Positions 400-35,988 of a stretch of 64,000 nucleotides of DNA are shown here, piece after piece. The notes beneath the pieces were generated by a model, which worked only from the letters and a program-made list of their open reading frames with translations, searched no databases and had not been told where the DNA came from. The DNA is from an uncultured Gemmatimonadales bacterium. Its GTDB lineage: Bacteria > Gemmatimonadota > Gemmatimonadetes > Longimicrobiales > RSA9. Location: the NCBI GenBank assembly GCA_963798845.1, contig CAWCUS010000002.1, positions 544,001 through 608,000 of the forward strand, read 5' to 3'. A program made the translations under genes and the position numbers. Numbering within the stretch: position 1 is the first letter of the stretch; each line of letters starts with the position of its first letter.

Positions 400-464
400 G
401 TTCTCGACATGCCTGCCCGTTGGCGCGTTGAAGCGCTGGGCTGGTCTGAGGAGGGCCCAACAGC

Positions 465-617
465 AGATAACAAACGGTTGGCGCCTGCGCTCGCTTTGCT
501 CGCTCCGGAGAACCCCGCATTAACGTCCTGGCGCCGGTTGAGCGAGAGCGTAGTCTCGATGGGAGCGGCGCCTGGTTAGGTCGCGGAGGCGGGGTCGCCA
601 ACCTGGAAACGTTATCT
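465..617 (+). repeat. attC-like site 1
   Basis: AGATAAC-AAACGGTTGGCGCC ... GGTCGCCAACCTGGAAAC-GTTATCT. Confidence 0.88.
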
Positions 618-823
618 GAAAGCCACTGCCCGAACGGCAACTCGCCGGGAAGCACCTTGGACCGGACTATCGTTCGGTAGGCATAGCATGTTGAGTGACA
701 ATCAACTTGACGTGTCCGAAGCCCGGCAGGCACTTTGACCGTCGTTGTTTGCAGTCGAGAGCGAGTTGGACGTCACACTACATTGGCGGCTGATTTCGAA
801 ATGCCAGCCGCGCCAGGAGTGAC

Positions 824-1285
824 ATGGAGAAGCGCGAGGCCAAATGGAAAATGGTGGGGTCGGTTCTTGGGGGATTGGGCGTCATCGGATCGCTTGTATT
901 CGTTGCGCTCGAGATCCGTCAGAACACCGAGGCCGTGCGCAGCGCAACGATACAGGCTATCTCGGAGCAATCATTCACAGCAGTAGCCCAGCTTGTTGAG
1001 AATGCCGATCTCCGCACGGCTTACGAGGCGGCGAGCACAGGAGCGACTCTCACTCCGGAACAACGTTTCCAGCTGAAGATGTTCTACCTCGGGATCATGC
1101 GGCTCCAGCAGAACCGGTATCTCCAATCTCAGCTGGGCGTACTCGATATGAACACGCTCCTTTTCGTCGGTGGGCGGGGTGGCGCGTACGATTTGCCATT
1201 CTTCGCTGAGTATTGGGCCGAAGATCGCGACCAATATCCCCCTGAGTTCCAAGACTTCGTTGAGCGCGTACTGCTTCCGCAATAA
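824..1285 (+). CDS. Hypothetical cassette protein with N-terminal TM helix (related to 7192..7719)
   Basis: GGAG upstream; hydrophobic VLGGLGVIGSLVFVALEIRQNT followed by helical domain ending FFAEYW...YPPEFQDFV. Confidence 0.75.
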   Translation: MEKREAKWKMVGSVLGGLGVIGSLVFVALEIRQNTEAVRSATIQAISEQSFTAVAQLVENADLRTAYEAASTGATLTPEQRFQLKMFYLGIMRLQQNRYLQSQLGVLDMNTLLFVGGRGGAYDLPFFAEYWAEDRDQYPPEFQDFVERVLLPQ

Positions 1286-1524
1286 GGGGGCTCTCCGTGA
1301 GCGTCAATGGAGTTGTGTTGCCCTGGCCTAGCGGCGCCGGTTGGCATGAAGTCGGTGCTGCCGCAATCCTTTCGCGGCAGATCGCTGCGGTCGCTGGCGG
1401 TTGCCAAGCTGTGGCAGCAGACTTCGGAGTCGTTAGAGATCGCTCTGGGATCCAATCCACGTACACAGAACGGGTTGGCACGGCGTCCAAGTAGATAGCC
1501 ATGCCGGCACGGGCAGTGGCCATC

Positions 1525-1693
1525 AGATCACTCCGCATGGCCGTTTGCTCGCTTCGCTCGCACACCAGCCGGAGTTGCGAGAGGATCTGAACGGAAAGAG
1601 CTTGGGCCGGCTGGACGCGCCCTCTAGCGGAGGTCGCCGCCTGCGGCGGCTCGCTCCGCCGCCGGGCGCGTCGGCCATGCTTTTTCGTTATGT
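1525..1693 (+). repeat. attC-like site 2 (divergent sequence, R'' AGATCAC)
   Basis: AGATCAC-TCC-GCATGGCCG ... CGGCCATGC-TTTTTC-GTTATGT; perfect 9-bp inner inverted repeat. Confidence 0.7.
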
Positions 1694-1757
1694 GCCAGCT
1701 CCGACGGCTGGTTGTTAGATTAGAGGGAGCAGGAATACCCCCTTTGTCGAGGTGCTC

Positions 1758-1985
1758 ATGCCGAACGTGGATCTCTCCGAAATTCTGCGACTGCCGGTGT
1801 CGGAGCGAATCGACGTTGTCCAGCAGATCTGGGACAGCGTCGCCGCGGATGCAGACGCGGTGCCGGTAAAGCCCGAACAGCGAGAGGAGTTGGATCGGCG
1901 GCTGAAGGAGCATCAGGAGAACCCGGATGACGTCGTGGAGTGGAACGAGGTTGAGAAACGGATCCGCTCCCGTCACAACCTGTGA
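1758..1985 (+). CDS. Putative addiction module antitoxin (TIGR02574-like)
   Basis: LPVSERIDVVQQIWDSV...QREELDRRL...W.EV pattern; overlaps downstream toxin (GTGA). Confidence 0.85.
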   Translation: MPNVDLSEILRLPVSERIDVVQQIWDSVAADADAVPVKPEQREELDRRLKEHQENPDDVVEWNEVEKRIRSRHNL

Positions 1986-2275
1986 AGGTCATCCTTCGCA
2001 GCATTGCAGAACAGGATGTCGCGGCAGCAGTCGGATGGTACGAAGAGCAGAGCTCAGGTCTGGGTGATCGCTTTCTGCTGAACGTCCGTGCTGCACTCGA
2101 GCGGATCGGAGAACATCCGGAGGCGTACCCCCTGGTGCACCCTCCGCACCTACGACGGATCTTGCTGTCGGATTTCCCCTACGGGTTGTTCTACCTGATG
2201 GAGCTGGACCGAGCTGTGGTCACGGCGTGCTTCCACGTGCGGCAGAATCCGAAGCGCTGGAGCAGTCGTGGCTGA
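1982..2275 (+). CDS. RelE/ParE family toxin
   Basis: AEQDVAAAVGWYEEQSSGLGDRF...HPEAYP...RRILLSDFPYGLFY...CFHVRQNP. Confidence 0.88.
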   Translation: MKVILRSIAEQDVAAAVGWYEEQSSGLGDRFLLNVRAALERIGEHPEAYPLVHPPHLRRILLSDFPYGLFYLMELDRAVVTACFHVRQNPKRWSSRG

Positions 2276-2297
2276 AAGGGCGCTGCGCTCCGCCGGC

Positions 2298-2450
2298 ACA
2301 TAACAAACGGTTGGCGCCTGCGCTCCCTGCGGTCGCTCCGGGGAACCCGGCGAATGACCTGTTGGCTGGAGGAAGGGCTGCGGGTAATTCAGAAGATGGG
2401 GCGCGATCCGGCGAATTGGACGCCGGGTCGCTCACCTGGAAACGTTAGGC
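2298..2450 (+). repeat. attC-like site 3
   Basis: ACATAAC-AAACGGTTGGCGCC ... GGGTCGCTCACCTGGAAAC-GTTAGGC. Confidence 0.88.
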
Positions 2451-2469
2451 GCCACTGCTGGTGGTTCAT

Positions 2470-2844
2470 ATGCCCAAGAAGGAGCAGTACAGGAAGAAGC
2501 AGATGCGGGATCTGGCTCGGGTTGCGTATGAGCGTGAACTCGAGGCGGGGCTCGAACAGCTACGCGAGCCGTTCCATGCCTGGGAGAACGGGGACATGGA
2601 CGCGAGTGAGTTGTCGCTGCGGATATCGTTCTTCTCGATGGATGCGCAGAAGCGGATTGAAGGGGTCTACTCCGGCTTGGACAAACGTACCCTGGTCGCG
2701 CGGGGCGTCGCGCTGGGTTTGCTGGAAGAGGCAGACCTTCCGCCGAAGCTGAAGGAAGAACTCACCGGGGCCATCGATTTCTTCAGGTCGCAATCCCAAC
2801 GTGAGGCAGAGGAGGACGCGGCCAAGAAGGGCAGCGGCGCCTAA
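2470..2844 (+). CDS. Hypothetical helical cassette protein
   Basis: Single ORF filling the cassette; TAA stop lies inside R'' box GCCTAAC. Confidence 0.75.
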   Translation: MPKKEQYRKKQMRDLARVAYERELEAGLEQLREPFHAWENGDMDASELSLRISFFSMDAQKRIEGVYSGLDKRTLVARGVALGLLEEADLPPKLKEELTGAIDFFRSQSQREAEEDAAKKGSGA

Positions 2845-2990
2845 CAAACGGTTGGCGCCTGCGCGGCCTGCGGCCGCGCCGGAGAACCCGCCGCGGCCGC
2901 CTGGGAGCTGGTAAGGTTCGTGTGGCTTCGAATGGTGATCGCGCTCTGGAGGTTTCGGCGCGGCGGGTCGCCAACCTGGAAACGTTAGAC
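2839..2990 (+). repeat. attC-like site 4
   Basis: GCCTAAC-AAACGGTTGGCGCC ... GGGTCGCCAACCTGGAAAC-GTTAGAC. Confidence 0.9.
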
Positions 2991-3510
2991 GCCATGCTTG
3001 CGGTGTGGTGATGAGATAAGGTGCAGGTCGGTCGTCTTTGGAAGAGAAGCGAGCGCATGAGCACGAAAGCAGTACCCATGATCCATGTGCCTGATGTCCG
3101 TGCGGCGGTCGAGTGGTACAAAATGGTGGGCTTTCGATTCTTGGAAGGGCATGAGGAGGATGGGGAAATGACGTGGGCGGCGCTCTCGCTGGGGTCAAGT
3201 GAGTTGATGCTTAACGCCGGCGGCCGCGCTAGTGACGCCGAGCGCAGGGACGTCGATCTCTACGTCTACTCTGAGGATGTCGCAGAAGTCTTCGAGCGCC
3301 TCAAAGGAAGGGTAGATATCATTGCACCGATCAGTGACACGTTCTACGGGAATAGGGAATTCATTGTCCGGGATCTCAACGGCTTCTTGTGAGTTCCCCG
3401 AATTCTGACCGCTGATCTCTCGAAAATCTGGCCGGCTGAGGAGCCTCCGTAGAATACTGTAGTCCCGTCCCGGGCAGGATGGAGTTCCTGTCAGATGGAG
3501 GCGGGGGAGG

Positions 3511-4920
3511 ATGCTCAGGGTGATCGATCGACATGCGGTGCATGCGCTGCTGGAGGCGGGGCAGAAGCAGACGGAAATCGCGAGGCAGCTGGGGATCTCG
3601 GAGCGGTCTGTCCGTCGGATCTCGAAGGAGCCGCCGGTGGCGGAGGGAGACGATGCGGCGGAGAGGAAGCGCCGGGGGATCGGGCGTCCCGCGGTGCCGG
3701 AGGCGGTGAAGCGCCGGCTGGTGGATCTGATCGCGGAGGATCCCGAGGCTCCACCCCTGGAATACCTGCGTCAGCTTCGGGAGGAGGGGGCGGAGCTGGC
3801 GGAGAGCACCTTCTACCGGGTCTTCCGGTTGGAGAAGGGGAAGCTGCCGGCGGAGCTGATGGTGCGGTTCGAGGGGGTGGCCGGGGAGTTCGCCCAGTTC
3901 GATTTCGGTCAGGCCGACGTCCGGCTGCTGGATGGACGGAAGAAGCGAGTTCACTTCGCGGCGTACCGTCTGAAGTACTCGCGGTGGGTGTGGGTGGTGA
4001 TCGTGCCGGACGAGCGGATCGAGTCACTCGTCCGGGCACTCCTGGCCGGCTTCGAGCATTCGGGCGGGGTGCCGCTCCGGGTGGTCTTCGACAATCCGAA
4101 GACGGTGGTGGTGGGCCGCGACGACCGGGGCCGGCCGATCTGGAATTCCACGCTGGCCCAGGTCGCCATCGACTATGGCTTCACGATCGAGCTGTGCACG
4201 CCCAGGAGCCCGCAGCAGAAGGGATCGGTGGAGAATCTGGTGGGGTGGGTGAAGCGGAGCTTCTTCCGGGCCCGCCGCTTCGCTGAGCTCGACCAGGACC
4301 TCCCCCGTCAGCTCCTGGACTGGCTGATCGGGGGGAATGAGGAGCGGCCATCCCGGGCCACGAAGGAGATCCCCAAGATCCGGCTGACCGCAGAGCAGGC
4401 GCGGATGAAGCCGCTGGCCATCCCGCCGGCCGAGTACGGTCTGCGTTACGCTGTCCACGTGGGACCCACCGCGCTCGTGGACTTCCAGGGCGTGCGCTAC
4501 GCCATGCCGGCGGGTGCGTGCGGGATCCCGGCCACGCTCCACCTGTACCCGGACCGGCTCCGGATCGTCACCACCGGCGCCCGCTTCGAGGCCACCCACC
4601 CCAGGTTTCCAAAGATCGGAAACACCAGCTACCTGCCCGGCCAGCGGGCCGAGCAGCTGGCGGCCGTGGCCGGTGCACGGAAGCGCCTCTACTTCATGCG
4701 GGAGCGAATCCTGGAGCTGGGGCCCGTAGGAGAGGGCTACCTGACGGAGCTCATCCACGCCCGACCCCACACATGGAAAGGAGACGTGGAGCGCCTCTTC
4801 GCCCTGCTCGAGGAGCTCGGCCAGGAGCGCTTCCTCCGCCTGCTCCAGCGCGCGCTCTTCCAGCGGCTGATCGGAGCTGAGTACGTGATCGGGCTGGCGG
4901 CGAAGGAGGTGGCCTCATGA
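3511..4920 (+). CDS. istA: IS21 transposase IstA
   Basis: N-terminal HTH; AQFDFG, VFDNPKT, QQKGSVENLVG DDE motifs. Confidence 0.93.
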   Translation: MLRVIDRHAVHALLEAGQKQTEIARQLGISERSVRRISKEPPVAEGDDAAERKRRGIGRPAVPEAVKRRLVDLIAEDPEAPPLEYLRQLREEGAELAESTFYRVFRLEKGKLPAELMVRFEGVAGEFAQFDFGQADVRLLDGRKKRVHFAAYRLKYSRWVWVVIVPDERIESLVRALLAGFEHSGGVPLRVVFDNPKTVVVGRDDRGRPIWNSTLAQVAIDYGFTIELCTPRSPQQKGSVENLVGWVKRSFFRARRFAELDQDLPRQLLDWLIGGNEERPSRATKEIPKIRLTAEQARMKPLAIPPAEYGLRYAVHVGPTALVDFQGVRYAMPAGACGIPATLHLYPDRLRIVTTGARFEATHPRFPKIGNTSYLPGQRAEQLAAVAGARKRLYFMRERILELGPVGEGYLTELIHARPHTWKGDVERLFALLEELGQERFLRLLQRALFQRLIGAEYVIGLAAKEVAS

Positions 4921-5693
4921 AGACTCCGGTGCCGCTGGACGACCTCGACGCCATGCTCAAGCGCCTCCACATGCCGACCATCCGGCGCCTGTATGCGGAC
5001 CTGGCGATCCGGGCCGAGGAGGAGGGCATGAGCTACCGCACCTTCCTCGAGCTGCTGGTGGCCGAGGAGATCGCTCACCGGGCGCAGACCCGGATCACCC
5101 GGTCCGTCCGCAAGGCCCGCTTCCCCTTCCTCCGCACCATCGAGGAATTCGACTTCACCTTCCAGACCAGCGTCCGCCTCCAGATGCTCGGCACGCTGCT
5201 GGGGCCGGAGCTGGTGAGCGAAGGCCGGTGCGCCATCTTCAGCGGCCCGCCGGGTCGAGGGAAGACCCACATGGGGGTAGCCATCGGCTACCGAGCGATC
5301 CAGAACGGATTCGAGGCCCGATTCACCACCGCGGATGAGCTGATCGGCGCCCTCTCCAACGCGGCCGCGGAGGGACGGCTGGACGAGGCGCTCGAACCCT
5401 ACGTCCACCCCCACGTCCTGATCATCGACGAGCTCGGCTATCAGAGCTATGCCGCCGATGCCGCCAACGTGCTCTACCGGGTGGTCAACGACCGCTACCT
5501 CAGGCACCGACCCATGATCGTCACCACCAATAAGCCTCTGGCCGCCCTCGGTCAGGTGCTGCATGATGCCGATCTTGCGGAGGCGATCCTCGACCGGCTC
5601 CTGGAGCGCGGCACTCACTTCGTGCTCCGCGGCCGCTCCTACCGCACCCGCCATCTCAAACAGGAGGAGACCCCGGACTCTGAAGCCGCCTAG
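4917..5693 (+). CDS. istB: IS21 helper ATPase IstB
   Basis: Walker A GPPGRGKTH, Walker B LIIDELGY, IVTTN, AILDRL. Confidence 0.95.
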   Translation: MKTPVPLDDLDAMLKRLHMPTIRRLYADLAIRAEEEGMSYRTFLELLVAEEIAHRAQTRITRSVRKARFPFLRTIEEFDFTFQTSVRLQMLGTLLGPELVSEGRCAIFSGPPGRGKTHMGVAIGYRAIQNGFEARFTTADELIGALSNAAAEGRLDEALEPYVHPHVLIIDELGYQSYAADAANVLYRVVNDRYLRHRPMIVTTNKPLAALGQVLHDADLAEAILDRLLERGTHFVLRGRSYRTRHLKQEETPDSEAA

Positions 5694-5849
5694 CTCACGC
5701 TCCCGGCCGGCCAGAATTTCGAGAATTAACCGGACATAGTTCAGAGAACCCACATGGCTGACGTTTGGACAGCAACTCGAGGCCGCAGAGCAATCGGATG
5801 CTACTCCGAGCGTCTGAGGCCCAGCGTCTAGAGGGGCGCAATCACGGCG

Positions 5850-6955
5850 CTTGAAGTCAACTTTGAAGTGCAACGTTCATAGTGTTGATCCGGGCTGATT
5901 CTCATATATCTCCGCGGGGGTGAGGAAGCCGAGCCGCTTGCGGGGTCGGTGGTTGAGGGCGGCAGCGATCCGGTCACAGTGGATCTGGGTGACTCGAGCC
6001 ATGCTCTGACGCTTCGGGAGATACTGCCGGATGAGGCCGTTCGTGTTCTCGCAGGTGCCTCGCTCCCAGGAGTGGTGGGGAGCGGCGAAGTAGACCGTGG
6101 CGCCGGTGGCCTTCTCCAGGGCTTTGTAGCCGTGGAACTCGGTCCCATTGTCGAGGGTGACGGTTCGGATGCGGCGGCCGGCGTTGCGGATCAGGGAAGT
6201 GGCGCACCGGTTCGTGGCGTCGGCGGTCCGGCCGCGCAGCTTGCCGAGGAGCAGGTAGCCGGTCTTCCGGTCCACCAGGGTGAGGACGCAGTGGCGGTCG
6301 GAGGATCCGATGACCGTGTCTCCTTCAAGGTGGCCCACGCGCGAGCGGTTCTCTGCGCCGGGCGGTCGCTCGGAAATGGGACGCTTGCCGGCAAGACGGC
6401 CGCGGCTGTCGTAGCTGCGGTAGCGCTTCCACTTCTTCTTCCTCGCGCCGCGCAGGTACTGATAGAGGAGGCCGCCCCTGCGGCGGTCCTCCCAGACGTA
6501 GCGATAAATGGTCTCGTGGCTGATGCGGAGCACGCCCGCCCGGGCGAGTCGGCCAGTGATCTGCTCGGGGCTCCACAGCTGCTGGAGCAGCGAACAGACC
6601 AGGGCCCAGTCATCGCCGCGGAAGCGTCGGTTCCGTCGGGATCGCGTGCGGCGGCCGCGGGTCATCTCGTCGGCCACCGCCGGCCGGTAGGCGCGGTCCT
6701 GTCTCGAGTTGCGCGTGATCTCCCGGCTGATCGTGCTCGGACTTCGGTCCAGCGCGCGGGCAATGCCGGCCTGACTGAAGCCTTGTTTTCTGAGCGCCGA
6801 GAGTGCATGTCGTTCACCTGAGGTGAGCTGGTGATATCCCATGAGCCCCTCCTATTTCTTGGTCGAAACAGGAAGCTCTGGGGTGTCCCAGCTCATCTCA
6901 ACCCCGGCACTCCTTCGAGCGGAGTCGAGCGTTGCACTTAGTTTGTGAATCCAAG
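5850..6955 (-). mobile_element. IS30-family insertion sequence
   Basis: 26-bp imperfect IRs (CTTGAAGTCAACTTTGAAGTGCAACG / CTTGGATTCACAAACTAAGTGCAACG), 3-bp direct repeat GCG (5847-5849, 6956-6958). Confidence 0.9.
5877..6842 (-). CDS. IS30 family transposase
   Basis: STISREI.RN, WSPEQI, ISHETIYRY, GHLEGDTV, TLDNGTEF, WERGTCENTNGLIRQYLPK. Confidence 0.95.
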   Translation of the reverse strand: MGYHQLTSGERHALSALRKQGFSQAGIARALDRSPSTISREITRNSRQDRAYRPAVADEMTRGRRTRSRRNRRFRGDDWALVCSLLQQLWSPEQITGRLARAGVLRISHETIYRYVWEDRRRGGLLYQYLRGARKKKWKRYRSYDSRGRLAGKRPISERPPGAENRSRVGHLEGDTVIGSSDRHCVLTLVDRKTGYLLLGKLRGRTADATNRCATSLIRNAGRRIRTVTLDNGTEFHGYKALEKATGATVYFAAPHHSWERGTCENTNGLIRQYLPKRQSMARVTQIHCDRIAAALNHRPRKRLGFLTPAEIYENQPGSTL

Positions 6956-6957
6956 GC

Positions 6958-7109
6958 GTATAATAAACGGCTGGCGCCTGCGCGGCCTTCGGCCGCTCCG
7001 GAGAAACCCGGCGCAGCCGTCCTTGAGCGGTCCGACTGACATGTAGTTTCGAAGGTTGTTGAGCCGGGGAGGCCTGGCGCGGCGGGTCGCCAGCCTGGAA
7101 ACGTTATCG
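6958..7109 (+). repeat. attC-like site 5
   Basis: GTATAAT-AAACGGCTGGCGCC ... GGGTCGCCAGCCTGGAAAC-GTTATCG; compensatory GGCTGGCG/CGCCAGCC. Confidence 0.82.
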
Positions 7110-7191
7110 GCCAGCGCAGAGACGGATGGTCCGACGCAGAATATTGTTGAGTACGAATCTCCTGCGACCGTAGACTGCGAGGTTACCTCTG

Positions 7192-7719
7192 GTGAACTGG
7201 AATGCGATACAAGCCGTTGCCGAGCTCGTCGCGGCGTTTGGGGTCCTCGCGAGCCTGCTCTATTTGGCGTCGCAGGTGCGGGACGCCTCTCTCGAGGGAC
7301 AACGGTCCAGGTACAACGAGTTGTCCGCGAGGGTTACGGACATTTCCAGAGACTGGGCAATCAACGACACACTGTCGGACATCATGTTCCGCGGGCTCCG
7401 CAACCCCTCCGACCTCGGACCCGCCGAGATCTTCCGGCTGTACTCGTCGATCTACGGGACCATGAAGGTCTGGGAGGCATCCTATCACTACTCGCTCCAG
7501 CGTGGCGTACATGCCTGGGGAGCCAGTGGACTCCGAGCGACAATGTCGTCCCTGATGGCGTTCCCGGGGATGCAGCATTACTGGAGGTCACGACGTTCGT
7601 GGTTCTCGAGCGACTTCCAGGACGAGGTAGATCGAGTAGTCGAGTTGGGAGCTCCCCGGATGGATGAGGACTACGGTGATTCGGTGGAGTCGGCGGCACC
7701 TCATGCACGGCCCAGCTGA
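7192..7719 (+). CDS. Hypothetical cassette protein with N-terminal TM helix (related to 824..1285)
   Basis: WNAIQAVAELVAAFGVLASLLYLASQVR...PGMQHYWRSRRSWFSSDFQDEVD. Confidence 0.78.
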   Translation: MNWNAIQAVAELVAAFGVLASLLYLASQVRDASLEGQRSRYNELSARVTDISRDWAINDTLSDIMFRGLRNPSDLGPAEIFRLYSSIYGTMKVWEASYHYSLQRGVHAWGASGLRATMSSLMAFPGMQHYWRSRRSWFSSDFQDEVDRVVELGAPRMDEDYGDSVESAAPHARPS

Positions 7720-7759
7720 TCCTCCAAGCGTGGCGACGTCGACCGATGGCGGCGCCGGC

Positions 7760-7935
7760 CGATAACACAGTTTCGATCGGACTCGAGCTCCTTGAGGAGC
7801 AGAGAAGCAATGGCGTCCGGGATCGGCAGTTCAAGGCCGGCGTTCCTGGGCCTCTGGTGAGGAGATTGCAGTTTCGAAGGTGGCCGCGCGCTGGAGCTTT
7901 CGGCGCGGCGGGTCGCCAACCTGGAAACGTTAAGT
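7760..7935 (+). repeat. attC-like site 6 (left arm not of the family type)
   Basis: CGATAAC at 7760; right ~85 bp match sites 4/7 and end CTGGAAAC-GTTAAGT. Confidence 0.72.
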
Positions 7936-7995
7936 GCCATCACGTTGGCTCGCCCCAAGCGTTAGATTGAGGCGGCTACCAACGGGAGGAACTCA

Positions 7996-8202
7996 ATGAA
8001 GTACCGCGTGCTGATCGAGCAGGACGAGGCCGGTTTTTTCGTGGCTGAGGTGCCGGCTCTGCCTGGGTGTGTGAGTCAGGGCGATACGCGGCGGGAGGCG
8101 CTCGCCAACATCCGAGAGGCGATCGCGGGTTATCTGGAGAGCCTCGAGGATCACCAGGAGCCGGTGCCTCCCTCGATCCATGAGGAGATCGTGGAGGTGT
8201 AG
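7996..8202 (+). CDS. hicB: HicB family antitoxin
   Basis: YRVLIEQDEAGFFVAEVPALPGCVSQGDTRREALANIREAI; GGAGG RBS. Confidence 0.92.
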   Translation: MKYRVLIEQDEAGFFVAEVPALPGCVSQGDTRREALANIREAIAGYLESLEDHQEPVPPSIHEEIVEV

Positions 8203-8427
8203 GTGGCCGAGCTGCCAGTCGTCTCGGGACGCGAGGCAGTGAAGGCGTTCGGCAGGATTGGCTACGGTGTCGATCGCCAGCGTGGAAGTCACATCATTCT
8301 GAGACAGGCGGAACCCCCTCATCGCCGCCTGACGATTCCGGACCACAAAGAACTTCGGAAGGGAACGTTACGGGCTCTGATCCGACAGGCTGGATTGTCG
8401 GTGGATGAGTTCGCCGCGTTGCTCTAG
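8203..8427 (+). CDS. hicA: HicA family toxin
   Basis: RQRGSHIIL...LTIPDHKELRKGTLRALIRQAGL. Confidence 0.92.
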   Translation: MAELPVVSGREAVKAFGRIGYGVDRQRGSHIILRQAEPPHRRLTIPDHKELRKGTLRALIRQAGLSVDEFAALL

Positions 8428-8482
8428 AAACAGCGAAACCGCTCGTTCGGTCAGCATCTCGAAGCTGGTTGGGCGTGACGGC

Positions 8483-8633
8483 AATAGACAAACGGTTGGC
8501 GCCTGCGCGGCCTGCGGCCACTCCGGAGAACCCGCCCCGATTAGCTGGACTCTGGTGAGATTCGTGCAGTTTCGAAGGTGATCGCGCGCTGAAGGTTTCG
8601 GCGTGGCGGGTCGCCAGCCTGTGAACGCTGAGC
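8483..8633 (+). repeat. attC-like site 7 (degenerate R boxes)
   Basis: Body closely resembles site 4; boxes AATAGAC and GCTGAGC deviate from AAC/GTT. Confidence 0.75.
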
Positions 8634-8767
8634 GAAAGGTGCCTTTGGAATCCCAATGGGACGTCAGACAAGGGAGAGAAGGAGGGATGCTGGAGGAGAC
8701 GTGGCGATGTAACTGAAGTGAATAGGGCGGACGGCTGGCGACGCCCGAAATATCAAGCGGAGGCGCG

Positions 8768-9265
8768 ATGCGAAGAAACCCCTCAGCGACGGTGACGGAA
8801 TTCCTCGAGAGTCTTCCGGGTGACCGGCAGAGGACCGTGGAGGCAGTACGGGCCCTGATTCGGCGACACCTGCCCCATGGATACGAGGAGGTGGTGGCGA
8901 AGAATATGCTGGTCTACCAGGTGCCGTTGAGCCGGTATGCGGATACGTACAATGGCTATCCGTTGTGGTATGTGGCCTTGGCGTCGGAGAAGTCGTATCT
9001 CTCGCTTCACCTGATGCCGGTCTACGGGAGCGCTATCTACGCGGATCGCCTAAGGGAGGGCTTCCGGAAGGAAGGCAAGCGCCTGAACATGGGTAAGGCA
9101 TGCGTGCGGTTCCGCAAGATCGAGGACCTAGCCCTCGATCCGATCGGTGAACTGGTTGGAAGCGTGTCGGTTGATCGTTGGGTGGAGATTGCCCAAAGTG
9201 CGCGATCTGGAAGGTCGCGGGACGGGTCCGCTGCTCGCGCGACAGCCCGTGGGAGGGACGGATAG
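8768..9265 (+). CDS. DUF1801/YdhG-like protein
   Basis: TVTEFLESLP...LP.GYEE...YVALASEKSYLSLHLM...MGKACVRF. Confidence 0.8.
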   Translation: MRRNPSATVTEFLESLPGDRQRTVEAVRALIRRHLPHGYEEVVAKNMLVYQVPLSRYADTYNGYPLWYVALASEKSYLSLHLMPVYGSAIYADRLREGFRKEGKRLNMGKACVRFRKIEDLALDPIGELVGSVSVDRWVEIAQSARSGRSRDGSAARATARGRDG

Positions 9266-9372
9266 ACGCGGTGGGGAAGCGTTGGTTGGGGATTGTCCCC
9301 GCCGAGGTGGTGCGGCGACGATCGCCTGGTTGGTCGGCGATCGATCGCCGCTCCAGCGTCATCGGGGCTGAT

Positions 9373-9482
9373 GATCAACCACCGGATGCGGAATCAGGAC
9401 GCCATGCTTGCCGAGCTTCGTGCTGCCGGGGCGGAGGTGGAGCACCCGCTCGAAAGTTAGCGCCGACCTGGAAACGTCAAGC
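9373..9482 (+). repeat. attC-like site 8 (degenerate, GTC core)
   Basis: Right end CGCCGACCTGGAAAC-GTCAAGC; left box GATCAAC tentative. Confidence 0.55.
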
Positions 9483-9524
9483 GCCATTCCCAACCAGAGG
9501 AACGCGCGTGTCGAAAGCGGCGGC

Positions 9525-10037
9525 ATGATCGACGGTCCCCACATCGAGGTGGCGGACGGCATGGCCGTCGTAGGTATTCATTGTCCCATGAGCTTCACCG
9601 AGCCGATGATGCGGGAGCTGTGGCAAGAGTTTCGGCCAAGGGTCAAGGATGTAAAAGGCAGAGCATCGGACAGCTTCATCTCGATGCGCGTCTATGACGA
9701 ACCGGTGGGAGCGGCGCCCGCTCCGGGATCGAAATTCGAGCAGTGGGCGGCGGTCGAGGTGGACGCATCAGCGGAGGTACCGCAGGGAATGGACTCTCAC
9801 AGGCTCGCGGGTGGGCTGTACGCAGTATTCACCCACCGCGGTCGAGCGGACGCGTTCGGAGATGTGGTACGTTACATCTACGGAGACTGGCTGCCGAGAT
9901 CAGAGTTCGAGCTGGCAGATCGTGAGTTTTTCGAAGTGTTGGGGCCTTCGTATCGTCCGGATGATCCGGAGGCGAGCGAGACGATCTGGATTCCTGTCCA
10001 GGAACGAGGCAGGCCCGGAGATCGGAACGGCGCTTGA
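9525..10037 (+). CDS. GyrI-like small-molecule binding protein
   Basis: WAAVEV...VPQGM...GGLYAVFTHRG...YIYGDWLPRS...FEVLG...SETIWIPV. Confidence 0.85.
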   Translation: MIDGPHIEVADGMAVVGIHCPMSFTEPMMRELWQEFRPRVKDVKGRASDSFISMRVYDEPVGAAPAPGSKFEQWAAVEVDASAEVPQGMDSHRLAGGLYAVFTHRGRADAFGDVVRYIYGDWLPRSEFELADREFFEVLGPSYRPDDPEASETIWIPVQERGRPGDRNGA

Positions 10038-10050
10038 CAGACGGTTTCAC
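10032..10050 (+). repeat. Truncated attC-like remnant (R'' only)
   Basis: GCTTGAC-AGACGGTT; 10024-10038 is 14/15 complementary to cassette start 9476-9490. Confidence 0.6.
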
Positions 10051-10071: not shown

Positions 10072-10719
10072 ATGACTCGTGTACGTGTCCACAATTTCAC
10101 GATCTCGCTCGACGGCTACGGAGCCGGGCCGCGCCAGACTCGCGAGGATCCGCTCGGCGTGGGTGGTGAGGAATTGCACGACTGGTACATCCCGACGCGC
10201 ACCTTCCAGCGCATGGGTGGGAAGACCGGCGGCACCACCGGCGTCGATGATGATTTCGCGGCGCGATTCGGGCAGGACGTCGGCGCGTGGATAATGGGAC
10301 GCAACATGTTCGGCCCGATTCGCGGTCCGTGGCCGGACGACGCCTGGCGCGGCTGGTGGGGAAAGAACCCGCCCTATCACGGCCCGGTCTTCGTGCTGAC
10401 CCATCATGCCCGCCCGCCGGCCGAGATGGAAGGCGGTACGGTCTTCCACTTCGTCACGGGCGGTATCCGTGAGGCGCTGGAGCGCGCCACTGCGGCTGCG
10501 GCCGGGAAGGACGTGGAGATCGGAGGCGGCGTGGCGACGGTCCGCCAGTACCTCGAAGCGGAGCTCATCGACGAGCTGCACGTGGCGATCGCGCCGAGGT
10601 TGCTCGGATCGGGCGAGCATCTCCTGTACGGCCTCGATCTCACGGCCCTGGGCTATGAGTGCACCACCCACGTGCCGACCGCCGGCGCAACCCATGTCGT
10701 GCTGACAAGAAAGGAGTGA
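10072..10719 (+). CDS. Dihydrofolate reductase-like (RibD C-terminal) family protein
   Basis: ISLDGYGAGP, IMGRNMFGP, VFVLTHH, IGGGVATVRQYL, IDELHVAIAP. Confidence 0.88.
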   Translation: MTRVRVHNFTISLDGYGAGPRQTREDPLGVGGEELHDWYIPTRTFQRMGGKTGGTTGVDDDFAARFGQDVGAWIMGRNMFGPIRGPWPDDAWRGWWGKNPPYHGPVFVLTHHARPPAEMEGGTVFHFVTGGIREALERATAAAAGKDVEIGGGVATVRQYLEAELIDELHVAIAPRLLGSGEHLLYGLDLTALGYECTTHVPTAGATHVVLTRKE

Positions 10720-10779
10720 CTGGGGAGGGACCAGAATGTGCAGGCGCTGCGACGGATCGCTGGGTGCTGAGGCTGTGAG

Positions 10780-10945
10780 ACTGCGGCTCCGGCGAACCCG
10801 GCGCTACCGGGGACGTCGGGTCGCCGGGCATCGCTCATGCCCACGGAAGCGTCGTGTGGAAGCGTACGAGTACGGGCGCTTCGGCTGGGTGCGAGATCCG
10901 GAGGGAAACAGGTTCGAGTTTTGGGAGCCCGCGGCGCGCGTGTAG
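10780..10945 (+). pseudogene. Degraded VOC/glyoxalase C-terminal fragment
   Basis: EYGRFGWVRDPEGNRFEFWEP without an intact N-terminus; start boundary approximate. Confidence 0.6.
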
Positions 10946-10964
10946 GGGGCGAGGAGACTGCGTC

Positions 10965-11612
10965 GTGTGCCACGAGGCCATCATCGACCTTTATGAACGC
11001 CACGCTCGCGACTATGACCGGGATCGCAGCCGTGGGCTTCAGGAGCGAGCATGGCTCGATCGATTCCTGGCATTGGTCGATCCGACGGCGCCGGTTCTCG
11101 ACCTCGGCTGCGGAGTCGGTGAGCCGATCGCCCGCTACCTGATCGAGCGTGGATGCGAGATCGTCGGGGTGGACTCGTCGCCCAGTATGGTTGAGATCTG
11201 CCGCGCTCGCTTTCCGGCGACCAGGTGGCTGGTGGGCGACATGCGGCACCTACGCTTCGACCACCGGTTCGCGGGTGTTGTCGCCTGGGACAGCTTCTTC
11301 CATCTGCACATGGATGACCAGCGCAGGATGTTTCGACGTTTTGCCGCCCATGCACTGCCCGGCGCTCCCCTGCTGTTCACGAGCGGGACGTCGGAGGGAG
11401 AGGCGATGGGTTCGTATCACGGCGAACCGCTGTACCATGCCAGCCTGGATCCGGCGGAATACCGGTCCCTGCTGAGCGCCAACGGCTTCGCGGTCCAGGC
11501 TCACACCATGGAGGATCCCGAGTGCGGGAAGCACACGATCTGGCTCGCCACGAAGGCCGCGCCGAGAGGGAAAGGCGCAGATCACGCTGGGCGTGACGGT
11601 TCCCACGGATGA
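10965..11612 (+). CDS. Class I SAM-dependent methyltransferase
   Basis: VLDLGCGVGEP, GVDSS, VGDMR, AWDSFFHL. Confidence 0.88.
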   Translation: MCHEAIIDLYERHARDYDRDRSRGLQERAWLDRFLALVDPTAPVLDLGCGVGEPIARYLIERGCEIVGVDSSPSMVEICRARFPATRWLVGDMRHLRFDHRFAGVVAWDSFFHLHMDDQRRMFRRFAAHALPGAPLLFTSGTSEGEAMGSYHGEPLYHASLDPAEYRSLLSANGFAVQAHTMEDPECGKHTIWLATKAAPRGKGADHAGRDGSHG

Positions 11613-12028: not shown

Positions 12029-12177
12029 AGGCTCGTGGGCGGCATTGATGCGGGCATCGCCGCCGGGCGGGCATCCGGCTCAGGGGTGGGGTGCCGCGGG
12101 TGTCCCGGGGATGTCCTCGATGCGCGTGTGGCGCTCCGGGCCACTCCGGAGCGCCACACGTGCCGGCCTTCGCGGCG

Positions 12178-14415
<2,238 letters not shown>

Positions 14416-14709
14416 TCAGCGAGTGGTGTGTTCAGCGTCGGATACGACCGAGCCCCGGCCGGGCGCCTGGAGGCGCACGCACCGCGGCGTCGTCGCGTGA
14501 GGACGGGCGGTGCGGCGGCGCAGGGGGTACTGTGGCCACAATGCCCCGGCCCGGACGCCGACGCAAGGGCTCGCGGCCGGCGCTGGCCCAGTGGTCCCGG
14601 GGCCGGGATCCCCGGCGCCGGGGGTCGGCTGGTCGGCCATCGAGCGGGCGCCGCCTCTGCCACAAGACCCTGTCCCCGGTACGCGGCGCCCTGTATAGTC
14701 TACGGACCC

Positions 14710-15371
14710 ATGCCCCCCGCCCTGGTCTCCCTGGCTACAGCCCTCGCAGGCCGCTACACCGTCGGCGACGCCATCGGCGCCGGTGGCATGGCGACCGTGT
14801 CCGTGCCCGCGACGGGAAGCACGGCCGCGACGTCGCGCTCAAGGTGCTCCGCCCGGAGCTGGTGGAGGCGCTGTGGCGCGAGCGGTTCCTGCGCGAGATC
14901 CGCCTGGCGGCCAGCCTCACGCACCCGAACATCCTGCCGTTCCACGATTCGGGCGATGCGGACGGCGTGCTCTGGTTCACCATGCCGCTCGTCGAGGGTG
15001 ACACGCTGCGGGACCGCCTGGAGCGGGAAGGACGGCTCGCGGAGAACGCGGCGGCGCTGCCTTACACGGCGCAGCTCCGGGCGCTGCTGGCCGCCGTGTC
15101 CGGGCGGCGCGAAGAGGCGCTCGAGATCCTCGCCACCGTGGACGAGTCGGCGCTGGACGGCCACCACACCTTTCACCTGGCCGAGTCGTACGCCGTGGCC
15201 GGTGCGCACGAGCGCGCCGTCGCGCTCCTCGATCGGGCCGTGACGCTCGGGTTCTACCCCCACGACTACTACAGCCGGCTCTGCCCGTTCCACGATGCGC
15301 TGAGGGGCCGTGACGATTTCGCCCGGGTCGCCGCGCGCGCGGCGGAGCGGTCCGCGGCGTTCCGGGCGTAG
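14710..15371 (+). pseudogene. Ser/Thr protein kinase remnant (frameshift ~14798 plus large internal deletion)
   Basis: GRY...IGAGGMATV | RARD.KHGRDVALKVLRPEL...HPNILPFHDSG...MPLVEGDTLRDRL then jumps to a helical C-terminal tail; no HRD/DFG. Confidence 0.8.
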
Positions 15372-17538: not shown

Positions 17539-18696
17539 ATGCGACTCCGGCCCACGCTCCTTCTCGGTCTCGCCGCCTGCGGCGCCGCACCATCCGCGAC
17601 GCAGGGGCCGACGTTCGACATCCGGCGCATCGACAGGGGCAGCGGCTCGGGGTCGCTCCTGACGCTGGCGGACGAGGACGGGGACGGGCACGTGGACATC
17701 CTGGCGGGGGGCGAAGGGAGCGTGACGGTGCTGCGGGGGGACGGCCGCGGCGGGTTCGCGGCGCCGGTGCGGTTGGCCGCCGGCGAGAACCCGGTGTGCG
17801 CGGCGGTCGGGGACCTGGACGGAGACGGTCGGCTGGACGCGGTCGTCGCCAACCACGACACGCACTACGTCACGCTCCTGTTCGGCGGCGAGCAGGGCCT
17901 CGCGTCGCGGCGCCAGGTGCGCGTGCCGGTGGAGCTGGAGCCGCACCCCCACGCGGTGGCGGTGGCGGACCTCGACGAGGATGGTCACCTCGATTTCGTG
18001 GTGGACGACCGGCAGGGGGAGCGCCTGCTCGCGTTCCGCGGCGCGGGGGACGGTACGTTCGAGGTCGCCCGCCCGGTCCCGGTCGGCGGCGACCCGTACC
18101 GGGGCATGGCCCTGGCCGACGTGAACGGGGACGGCCACATGGACGTGGTCACGCCGAACCCGCGCACCGTTGCGGTCCAGCTCGGCGACGGCCGGGGCGG
18201 CTTCACCCCGGGCGCGCGCCTGGACGCATCGGACGTGCGCCCCTTCAGCGTGGCGGTGGGCGATTTCGACGGCGACGGCGTGGCCGACGTGGCGGCGGCC
18301 AGCGGCGAGCAGGTGGGGCTGCTGGGCGTGTGGCGCGGGACGGGGGGCGGGGCGTTCGAGCCGGCGCCGGGCTCGCCGTTCACCATCGCGCAGGGACCGG
18401 CCACGGTGGTCGCCGCGGACGTCACGGGCGACGGCGTGGACGACCTCCTGGTGACCAGCTACGCCGGCGCCGAGCTGGCCATCTTCCCGGGCTCCGCCGA
18501 CGAGGGCATGGGGGCCGCGGGTGGCGCGTTCCAGGGCGCGACCGGCCCCACGCGCATCGCGATCGCGGACGGCCCGTGGGGCCTCGCTGCCGGGGACGTG
18601 AACGGGGACGGCCGGGCGGACATCGTCGTCGCCAGCGATGGCGCCACGACGCTCACCGTGCTGCTCGCGCGGGGCACGGACGCGGGACGCGAATGA
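17539..18696 (+). CDS. FG-GAP/VCBS repeat protein (putative lipoprotein)
   Basis: Seven D.DGDG..D repeats; LAAC lipobox; AGGAG RBS. Confidence 0.88.
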   Translation: MRLRPTLLLGLAACGAAPSATQGPTFDIRRIDRGSGSGSLLTLADEDGDGHVDILAGGEGSVTVLRGDGRGGFAAPVRLAAGENPVCAAVGDLDGDGRLDAVVANHDTHYVTLLFGGEQGLASRRQVRVPVELEPHPHAVAVADLDEDGHLDFVVDDRQGERLLAFRGAGDGTFEVARPVPVGGDPYRGMALADVNGDGHMDVVTPNPRTVAVQLGDGRGGFTPGARLDASDVRPFSVAVGDFDGDGVADVAAASGEQVGLLGVWRGTGGGAFEPAPGSPFTIAQGPATVVAADVTGDGVDDLLVTSYAGAELAIFPGSADEGMGAAGGAFQGATGPTRIAIADGPWGLAAGDVNGDGRADIVVASDGATTLTVLLARGTDAGRE

Positions 18697-22050: not shown

Positions 22051-22109
22051 GCCCCGCGGATGCCGGCCGCCCCGGCACCCGCGCCGCGCCTTCGCGTTCC
22101 CTGGGCGCC

Positions 22110-22336
22110 GGGTGCCTCCCCGCGCGCAATGACGCTGCTTCGGCGAGGGGTGCCTCCTCGCGCGCAATGACGCTGCTTCGGCGACGGGTGCCTCCTCGCG
22201 CGCATGACGCTGCTTCGGCGAGCGGGTGCCTCCTTGCGCGCAATGACGCTGCTTCGCGGGCGCTGCCTCCTTCAGGGCCCTGACGCTGCTTCGGCCGCGG
22301 GTGCCTCCTTGCGCGCCATAACGCTGCTTCGCGGGC
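22110..22336. repeat. Tandem array of six ~38-bp units
   Basis: Consensus GGGTGCCTCC-YYGCGCGCAA-TGACGCTGCTTC-G(G/C)...; unit starts 22110, 22148, 22186, 22224, 22261, 22299. Confidence 0.92.
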
Positions 22337-22340
22337 AGTC

Positions 22341-22432
22341 CCGTCGCCAGGACGTCCGCTGCCGCCATGGCGGTGCCCCGGCTCGGGGTGCCGTCGCCAG
22401 GATGTCCGCTGCCGCCATGGCGGTGCCCCGGC
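22341..22432. repeat. Two-copy direct repeat, 50-bp period
   Basis: CCGTCGCCAGGAYGTCCGCTGCCGCCATGGCGGTGCCCCGGC at 22341 and 22391, containing palindrome CCGCCATGGCGG. Confidence 0.88.
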
Positions 22433-22456
22433 GCGCAACCCACCGTCATTTCGCAA

Positions 22457-35762: not shown

Positions 35763-35849
35763 TCAAGAAGACGGCCAGGGGAACGCTGCCCGTCGGCTCC
35801 CGGATTCACCGGGGTGGTGCGCGCGGGCAGGAGAGGGACAGGTTGATCC

Positions 35850-35927
35850 GCAGCAGGCAGCAGGCAGCAGGCAGCAGGCAGCAGGCAGCAGGCAGCAGTC
35901 AGCAGGCAGCAGGCAGCAGGCAGCAGG
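35850..35927. repeat. (GCAGCAG)x11 heptamer repeat
   Basis: Directly visible, one variant unit. Confidence 0.92.
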
Positions 35928-35988
35928 GTGGCATGCGGCCGCCGGCTGGCGGCAGGCGGCAGGTGGCAGATCCGGAAGGAGGGGCGAG

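Follow-up and report, generated by a model that had tools for sequence, protein, structure and literature searches.

A probable integron-like cassette array in Gemmatimonadota headed by a tyrosine recombinase without the I2 helix

Which enzyme moves the gene cassettes of an integron-like array that shows no integrase in view? The question is raised by a 64,000-nt stretch of DNA from an uncultured Gemmatimonadales bacterium (assembly GCA_963798845.1, contig CAWCUS010000002.1), referred to below as the window. It covers positions 544001–608000 of contig C2 in a genome of 4.26 Mb, 70% G+C and six contigs, here called G000; G and L codes denote the other genomes and loci compared. The source labels on proteins from its close relatives are Longimicrobiales and Gemmatimonadota. 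A sequence-only reading of the first 10 kb had noticed nine related sites that separate small genes, and had proposed a cassette system with a lineage-specific family of sites. Extending the analysis upstream and to relatives, we find a tyrosine recombinase gene at the head of the array. The locus is probably (at a probability of about 0.78) an integron-like chromosomal cassette platform run by this non-canonical recombinase, which lacks the I2 helix of the integron integrases (IntI) and has a HARP-like domain. Such an enzyme heading an array suggests an integron of a second, undescribed kind.

The cassette array and its folding sites

The array is 22 kb long and holds 20 cassettes (C2:532010–554040, or window −11990 to 10040), as delimited by box motifs and by R1, a covariance model built from 14 intact site copies. 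The window contains its distal half, and the array begins 11,990 bases upstream. A repeat search of the window returned a ~150-nt unit, with left halves in five copies and right halves in six, and R1 recognises there five sites at 129–156 bits (E 1e-37 to 1e-45) and, with lower scores, half of a site (38 bits) and two remnants (~13 bits). Across the genome, R1 finds 19 sites, 17 of them in the main array, all in one orientation, and two on contig C5. A strict structural scanner found none in the window's remaining 53 kb, and no Rfam family matched at gathering thresholds anywhere in the window. Site features are present at all nine coordinates noticed earlier, although they are unequal: five are full R1 sites, one belongs to another sequence family and three are remnants. 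The description of the sites as homogeneous likewise suits the five R1 members, but not that one site or several in relatives, which are of other families; several array sites are truncated.

The sites are bounded by outer boxes of the form RYYYAAC and GTTRRRY, and the start of a cassette is the reverse complement of its own end in 18 of the 20 cassettes (counted as such when, of the six bases that the cassette start has outside GTTA/TAAC, five or more pair with those preceding the AAC of the next site); pairings with ends other than a cassette's own reach this level in 48 of 380 cases. The four start/end pairs quoted in the sequence-only reading are exact 10/10 complements. Its two stop codons in the left box are also in place, TAA (2842–2844) at the end of cassette 15 and TGA (10035–10037) at the end of cassette 20, each within the R'' box.

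The crossover point can be read from a HicBA cassette (window 7929–8489) that also occurs in G001 and G032 and stands behind three unrelated upstream sites in the three genomes. Homology among the copies begins at ACGTTAAG, and two of the three share the downstream site. Because the same cassette follows three unrelated sites, the site at the 3′ end of a cassette belongs to that cassette, and joining takes place at the G|TT of the right box. The sequences thus indicate that cassettes carry their own attC-like site and recombine at G|TT, as in integrons and as had been proposed.

Comparison with G001, from a sister species in the same genus, suggests where cassettes enter. Collinearity of the two genomes, at 86.6% identity, spans the recombinase gene and ends exactly one base ahead of the first GTT (at C2:532009), 227 bp past the recombinase stop codon; we take this border as the putative attI. 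A palindrome, CCGAAC-N4-GTTCGG, lies 10 nt before the first GTT, and similar motifs are found in G005, G032 and G036. Beyond the border few cassettes are shared, and collinearity is back only near C2:559516 (window 15516), at 77%. Gene order, which if fixed among relatives would have spoken against mobile cassettes, differs between the two genomes, as does content. The cassettes that they have in common are 99.1–100% identical. Similarly, cassettes shared by G032 and G036, which belong to different genera, are 96.4–97.9% identical, with recombinase genes at 69%. These comparisons indicate that cassettes are gained, lost, reordered and exchanged between genomes.

The gene content of the array is typical for integrons. 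Recognisable products are Unstab_antitox with ParE, HicB with HicA, a reversed ParE-like pair, VOC, DUF1801, DUF3800 and GyrI-like/Cass2 proteins, Cass2 being the Pfam 'integron-associated effector binding protein'; the majority of cassette genes match no family. All units had been described as lying on the + strand, which holds for the coding open reading frames (ORFs) in the window part of the array with the exception of an inserted IS30-like transposase gene on the − strand (5877–6842). Upstream of the window, the reversed ParE-like toxin–antitoxin cassette is also on the − strand. A 179-nt cassette whose longest ORF has ~58 codons is present in three copies, 90–98% identical (C2:532331–532509, 533400–533578 and 540536–540714; L009:6331–6509, 7400–7578 and 14536–14714), and in G306 the array abounds in similar cassettes of ~190 nt, spaced 343 nt apart. 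The two R1-type sites on contig C5 (G000:C5:360206–361121, − strand, locus L011) have no recombinase nearby and flank a cassette 93% identical to one in the main array; they form a secondary-site or orphan cluster.

As single-stranded DNA (ssDNA), the 14 intact sites all take up one shape, at −25 to −45 kcal/mol, and the RNAalifold consensus agrees with it. In the predicted fold, an outer TAAC/GTTA stem is followed by an internal loop of 5 and 8 nt and then by an unbroken 8-bp L stem (GGTTGGCG/CGCCAACC) with no single bulged bases in the consensus. The L stem leads to a three-way junction, on one side of which a long stem (ACCCGCCGCG/CGCGGCGGGT) is stacked directly; the other side holds a small hairpin and the conserved CTCCGGAGAA. 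The asymmetry of the site comes from a 28–30-nt side hairpin instead of extrahelical single bases. Sites of 88–112 nt in G032 and G036 are shorter and keep the three-way plan, and those on a Chryseobacterium plasmid (Bacteroidota), read directly, have no side hairpin. R1 returned nothing from 80 loci around distant relatives of the recombinase except one match at E 0.99; the sequence family is therefore lineage-specific, as first supposed.

Covariation supports this pairing. Among 66 distinct sites from seven genomes, aligned by fitting to the model's structure, 95.8% of cells are paired, compared with 85.5% after shuffling and 31–40% when the partner is slid. Both sides change in 20 of the 26 base pairs, giving 134 such cells against 37.9 expected, and none of 500 shuffles reaches the observed covariation values. 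A raw MAFFT alignment also shows compensatory changes plainly (GTTGCCG/CGGCAAC, GGCTGG/CCAGCC). An alignment larger than that available to the first reading could have revealed no covariation; instead the signal is strong, and argues for base pairing within a single strand.

Such sites might also be a dispersed structured repeat, whether like a repetitive extragenic palindrome (REP) or a miniature inverted-repeat transposable element (MITE), or an RNA element such as a terminator, with the look of cassettes arising through homologous recombination. The sites are indeed GC-rich, structured, intergenic and sequence-conserved within the lineage, and covariation alone cannot separate DNA from RNA folding. 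We consider this origin very improbable, however: dispersed repeats leave unexplained why the start of a unit is complementary to its own end, 17 of the 19 sites in the genome lie in one array and one orientation, and the same cassette stands behind unrelated site families with its junction at G|TT. The array moreover starts at a fixed point beside a recombinase gene, and its sites match nothing in Rfam.

The recombinase and its N-terminal domain

The sequence-only reading had placed the recombinase upstream of base 1 or elsewhere in the genome, and the first of these proved right: a tyrosine recombinase gene is found 12.2 kb upstream of the window, on the strand of the cassettes, with its end 227 bp short of the first G|TT. 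The protein is 359–377 amino acids long, matches Phage_integrase at 145 bits and has catalytic residues R216, K241/K244, H306, R309, H332 and Y341 (RKHRHY), which are invariant in 14 members. Its best NCBIfam model is the integron integrase TIGR02249; the score of 204 bits falls short of the cut-off (265), and the match is in two pieces with model positions 180–234 left out between them. All five orthologues tested likewise match in two pieces and below the cut-off. NF011946 scores 139.9 against a cut-off of 435. The XerA model NF040815 gives 195.1 against a cut-off of 220 for the G000 protein, and in other members 228.5 (L013) and, below the cut-off, 218.8 (L015), 215.3 (L017) and 212.2 (G010).

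Alignment to VchIntIA (2a3v) covers residues 9–171 and 240–318, with 26 residues where IntIA has 68, and alignment to archaeal XerA runs end to end. No insertion corresponding to the additional domain of IntI (the I2 helix, ~35 residues near patch III) is present in any of the 14 family members aligned. The first reading had suggested looking for this IntI-specific insertion in the upstream recombinase; it is absent, and 'integron' therefore fits the mode of working and not the family membership. The AlphaFold model (predicted local distance difference test score, pLDDT, 84.3) has 2a3v as its top structural match (E 3.5e-16). In a quick-search IQ-TREE tree of 36 proteins, support by the Shimodaira–Hasegawa-like approximate likelihood ratio test (SH-aLRT) is 98 for the IntI clade, 85 for the array-linked group and 95 for both together, apart from XerD and XerA-like proteins. 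By these comparisons the recombinase appears to be a member of IntI's sister group and no canonical IntI.

The system as a whole is set between known ones. With canonical and sedentary chromosomal integrons it has in common promoterless genes and imperfectly palindromic RYYYAAC...GTTRRRY sites, the G|TT crossover, an attI-like entry point, a typical cassette content, insertion sequences, arrays that differ between close relatives, and a recombinase nearest to IntI by tree and structure. In contrast, the array integrase lacks the ~35-residue IntI domain, stays below the TIGR02249 cut-off and has an extra N-terminal HARP-like domain, and in place of single extrahelical bases the sites show a side hairpin and an 8-bp L stem without breaks. 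The integrase is also co-oriented with its cassettes, unlike that of canonical integrons; the 'inverted' integrons, of Treponema among others, share this orientation. With XerA and XerCD it shares catalytic and core-binding domains of equal size and architecture and the lack of the IntI insertion, and NF040815 nearly matches the score of the IntI model. It differs from them in lying away from dif, in its N-terminal extra domain and in its linkage to arrays of 5–20 sites; G000 has separate Xer-like genes. The literature on Xer includes a case in which a folded single strand is taken as substrate, that of CTX phage integration (PMC3442271).

Family members of both Gemmatimonadota and Bacteroidota share the conserved first ~75 residues of the recombinase, in which W36 and W43 are invariant. 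Pfam HARP (PF07443) matches five of 13 members, the best at E 4.8e-4 and 19.6 bits against a gathering cut-off of 25, and all of them under that cut-off. A profile of the domain run against the PDB has the HARP domain of SMARCAL1 (4o66) as its top match at E 0.054. The predicted model of the domain (pLDDT 80.6) has the same entry as its top Foldseek match at E 0.058, and its VIA-align Z scores are middling (7.5 for T4 UvsW-N, 5.4–6.3 for archaeal XPB-N, and 4.2 for 4o66). In a search of 1.84 billion representatives, the profile matched 3,797 proteins with E no higher than 0.001, of which 455 reached 1e-10 or lower, often in two to four tandem copies. Twenty of these, picked as top-ranked and long, comprise nine tyrosine recombinases (3–4 copies), eight SNF2 helicases and three small proteins; seven of the eight helicases list Pfam HARP, and their profile E-values are 1e-16 to 1e-22. 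A protein atlas gave, for the N-terminal part, a best score of 0.86 to unnamed Bacteroidota clusters, which is a lead only. Sequence and model thus assign the domain to the HARP/UvsW-N/XPB-N class, weakly at every single step. It would share with SMARCAL1 HARP, T4 UvsW and archaeal XPB a fold class and weak sequence similarity, whereas those domains are fused to a helicase motor and this one to a tyrosine recombinase.

What is published on human HARP includes binding to forks, single-/double-strand junctions, bubbles and Holliday junctions, and not to plain single or double strands, as well as the ability of HARP domains to pass fork and junction activity to other motors (PMC4035279). The tyrosine recombinases P0124, P0128, P0131, P0133, P0136, P0140, P0142, P0166 and P0187, 583–789 amino acids long, have three or four tandem HARP-like repeats before SAM_4 and catalytic domains. 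In the open-access literature searched, we found no description of a HARP–recombinase fusion, of a recombinase lacking the extra domain at the head of an integron, or of these arrays.

Linkage to arrays, candidate mechanism and rivals

The recombinase is linked to such sites in genome after genome; had no tyrosine recombinase been associated with them, the idea of a cassette system would have suffered. Among 60 relatives, R1-type sites occur in 12, the HARP-type gene in 19 and canonical IntI in 13 (these tallies include the unpublished genomes G016, G017, G020 and G038, from which no locus-level claim is made). In G000, G001, G005, G013, G032 and G036 the HARP-type gene heads the array and reads in its direction; in G033 the copy is truncated. 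The gene holds the same position before other site families in G010 (two loci) and G015. It also heads an array at a locus from a metagenome-assembled genome (MAG; L013, 44% identity). The Chryseobacterium plasmid (L120, NZ_CP041688.1:7041–26033) has an array-heading homologue at 36% identity, annotated as 'site-specific tyrosine recombinase/integron integrase', and the ends of its cassettes are likewise complementary. Inserted in that array, in opposite orientation, are genes for an IS110 transposase and for a group II intron reverse transcriptase. In sum, at least 13 genomes of different genera, and a plasmid of another phylum, have the gene co-oriented with the array and a few hundred bp ahead of its first G|TT. 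Many other contigs end directly after the gene, and at G028, where the N-terminal domain is not matched, the locus has no array.

A fresh test set of 300 further genomes of the phylum yielded the gene in 12, distributed over three families (f1, 2/6; f2, 8/49; f7, 2/23; all others 0). Six of the new loci have at least 3 kb of downstream sequence, and four of these have 5–18 sites, all downstream of the gene and none upstream.

Could a canonical IntI move these cassettes instead? The array would then be an ordinary cluster of attC sites lacking an integron integrase (CALIN), served by an IntI elsewhere (the frameshifted gene at C2:1322–2273, or one since lost), and its neighbour an unrelated Xer-like or island integrase. 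Canonical IntI genes are present in G000, in G001 and in 13 of the 60 relatives, and IntIs are described, among other findings in PMC2095811, as accepting diverse attC sites. A tool that requires the intI_Cterm profile would probably call the array a CALIN. Against this, canonical IntI occurs in only two of the 12 R1-positive relatives and the HARP-type gene in nine; arrays also exist in G032, G036, G013 and G033, where nothing exceeds the IntI cut-off, and G032, with its 13 or more sites, is one contig that lacks a canonical IntI. Nor is the array orphaned, as a CALIN is: a conserved recombinase holds the same co-oriented head position in the 13 or more genomes and the plasmid. For Cury et al. 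2016 the ~35-residue domain is what defines IntI, and their report includes 21 recombinases without it near attC, always with fewer than three sites, which they concluded were not IntI (PMC4889954); here there are 5 to 20. We therefore hold a canonical IntI acting on this array to be quite unlikely.

The canonical IntI gene of G000 also has its own cassette with a different kind of site. The gene has a frameshift near 1827 and matches TIGR02249 at 197 and 216 bits in two frames; it belongs to a small canonical integron (C2:1322–3540, L010) with a co-oriented low-GC cassette and a 68-nt site that has a one-base bulge in its L stem. The same genome thus pairs an integrase that has the extra domain with bulged sites and an integrase that lacks it with unbulged, branched sites, although the canonical sites are few. 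G001 has two canonical IntI genes (328 and 323 bits), and one of four candidate sites beside them folds as a neat hairpin. The strict scanner found nothing beside the canonical IntI genes because it demands an unbroken stem.

If the HARP-type enzyme catalyses cassette exchange, as we infer, each cassette would consist of a gene or gene pair and its own ~150-nt folding site, and new cassettes would enter at the attI-like site 227 bp downstream of the recombinase gene. By analogy with IntI, the enzyme would bind one folded strand, probably the − strand, on which the side hairpin would fall on the arm where IntI sites carry extrahelical bases (in a comparison with the aadA7 site). One strand would be exchanged at AA|C / G|TT and the product resolved by replication. 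The HARP-like domain may read the three-way junction in place of the I2 helix; an unbroken L stem with its asymmetry in a side hairpin would fit an enzyme without that helix. This last proposal is the weakest, because the Bacteroidota sites have no side hairpin and the G013 protein, which heads an array, is without most of the domain.

The latter two observations also speak for a simpler arrangement, in which the recombinase is the cognate integrase, its N-terminal domain is a regulatory or oligomerisation module, and the sites are read as Xer reads dif. The weakness of the HARP assignment at each step likewise favours it. The domain is nevertheless conserved from Gemmatimonadota to Bacteroidota with both tryptophans invariant, and in SNF2 helicases the related domains serve to recognise branched DNA as substrate. 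We consider a merely regulatory domain with dif-like reading unlikely, if a rival to be taken seriously.

Several observations weigh against a platform run by the HARP-type recombinase. Cassettes 12 (7/10) and 19 (5/10) break the rule of complementary ends. Four metagenome runs from one study, the only runs in which the sequence occurs, contain 6–16% of the sampled words as short contigs and showed no circular or deletion junctions; the pieces matching at 90% identity were scattered, with loose ends at site borders and a few joints between sites, many with sides under 30 nt. The fitting of the covariation alignment to the model's structure favours that structure, and wobble pairs (31 GT/TG against 17 AC/CA) do not tell the folding strand apart. 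Three R1-positive relatives have no HARP-type gene, their sites lying at contig ends, and there is no array at the HARP-type loci of G276 and G314 in the fresh set or of L017 (Psychroserpens, 32% identity). The tree has SH-aLRT support only, a midpoint root and some rows that are long-branched or of odd composition, and the assignment of the N-terminal domain is as weak as described above. Finally, canonical IntI is present in G000 and G001, and action in trans is therefore possible in those two genomes.

A broader proposal goes further, and we offer it tentatively, at somewhat less than even odds. HARP-domain recombinases would form a second, old and widespread class of integrons, sister to that of IntI, in which the N-terminal domain replaces the I2 helix in recognition of folded sites; as part of the same proposal, the class would extend over Gemmatimonadota, Bacteroidota plasmids, and MAGs labelled Dehalococcoidia, Latescibacteria and Clostridiales. 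If so, folded-attC recombination arose twice or predates the I2 helix, and part of the CALINs in databases are complete integrons of this class.

The I2-helix domain is treated in parts of the literature as the defining feature of IntI and as the innovation behind recombination of ssDNA (PMC7790495, PMC4889954), and detection tools require it; the lineage described here is without it and heads arrays of 5–20 mobile cassettes in many genera. Confirmation of the probable role of the HARP-type recombinase would widen the definition of integrons and explain some arrays filed as integrase-less. It would also provide a natural experiment in how structure-specific recombination evolves, in which another recognition module is joined to a shared catalytic core, and a new recombinase and site pair for engineering. 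Gemmatimonadota are named among the integron-bearing phyla in one review (PMC8618304), and the comparisons above show that this poorly studied soil and sediment phylum exchanges cassettes across genera.

Features of the window and its surroundings

The features of the array part of the window are listed in Table 1. The one intact site of another sequence family, 171 nt long, has boxes that we read directly as R'' CAGATCAC, L'' GCATGGCCG ... L' CGGCCATGC and R' GTTATGT; its fold is stable (z −3.2), with a minimum-energy structure that lacks the expected L pairing. A second copy of the IS21-family element, inverted and 99.7% identical, lies at C2:535226–537591, within the upstream part of the array.

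Table 1. Sites, cassettes and inserted elements in the array part of the window (window positions; start–end match, complementary bases of ten between cassette start and end)
Feature	Position	Strand	Content and evidence	Start–end match
Cassette 12, tail	1–463 (cassette start C2:543705, window −295)	+	ORFs 14–256 and 226–399, no Pfam match	
attC-like site, R1 family	464–617	+	137.4 bits; folded	
Cassette 13	611–1531	+	ORF 824–1285, 153 aa, no Pfam match	8/10
attC-like site of other sequence family, intact	1523–1693	+	Direct reading; unmatched by R1	
Cassette 14	1687–2304	+	Unstab_antitox antitoxin 1752–1985, ParE toxin 1982–2275	10/10
attC-like site, R1 family	2297–2450	+	129.1 bits	
Cassette 15	2444–2845	+	ORF 2461–2844, 127 aa, no Pfam match	10/10
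attC-like site, R1 family	2838–2990	+	155.7 bits; ssDNA fold z-score −5.3	
Cassette 16	2984–6964	+	Glyoxalase/VOC gene 3021–3392, interrupted by insertions	8/10
IS21-family element in cassette 16	3388–5754	+	istA 3511–4920, istB 4917–5693	
IS30-like transposase gene in cassette 16	5877–6842	−	HTH_38 and rve	
attC-like site, R1 family	6957–7109	+	137.9 bits	
Cassette 17	7103–7766	+	ORF 7192–7719, 175 aa, no Pfam match	10/10
Composite site	7757–7935	+	R'' box, gene fragment, right half of R1 site (7801–7935, 38.4 bits)	
Cassette 18	7929–8489	+	HicB 7996–8202, HicA 8203–8427	
attC-like site, R1 family, decayed R' box GCTGAGC	8482–8633	+	136.6 bits	
Cassette 19	8627–9379	+	DUF1801 protein 8768–9265	5/10
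Decayed site, only right half recognisable	9323–9482	+	13.4 bits, E 0.004	
Cassette 20 (last)	9476–10038	+	GyrI-like/Cass2 protein	10/10
Cut-off left box, end of recognisable array	10029–10048	+	Direct reading and R1	
Weak site-core remnant	10743–10825	+	13.7 bits, E 0.0035	

Past the last cassette, window 10072–11612 contains a RibD_C-family gene (10072–10719) and a methyltransferase gene (10854–11612); together with the site-core remnant between them, these are probably decayed cassettes. Further on, a 1050-codon open frame at 12091–15243 has no Pfam match and is overlapped by long frames on the opposite strand; in DNA of 70% G+C it may be no gene. Two tandem repeats in the window are unrelated to the array, one at 22085–22435 (38 nt, ~8 copies) and the other at 35836–35963 (7/14 nt, GCAGCAG/GCAGG). 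Repeated coding units with D-x-D-G-D-G motifs occupy 17654–18634, and their product is probably a calcium-binding or FG-GAP-like repeat protein.

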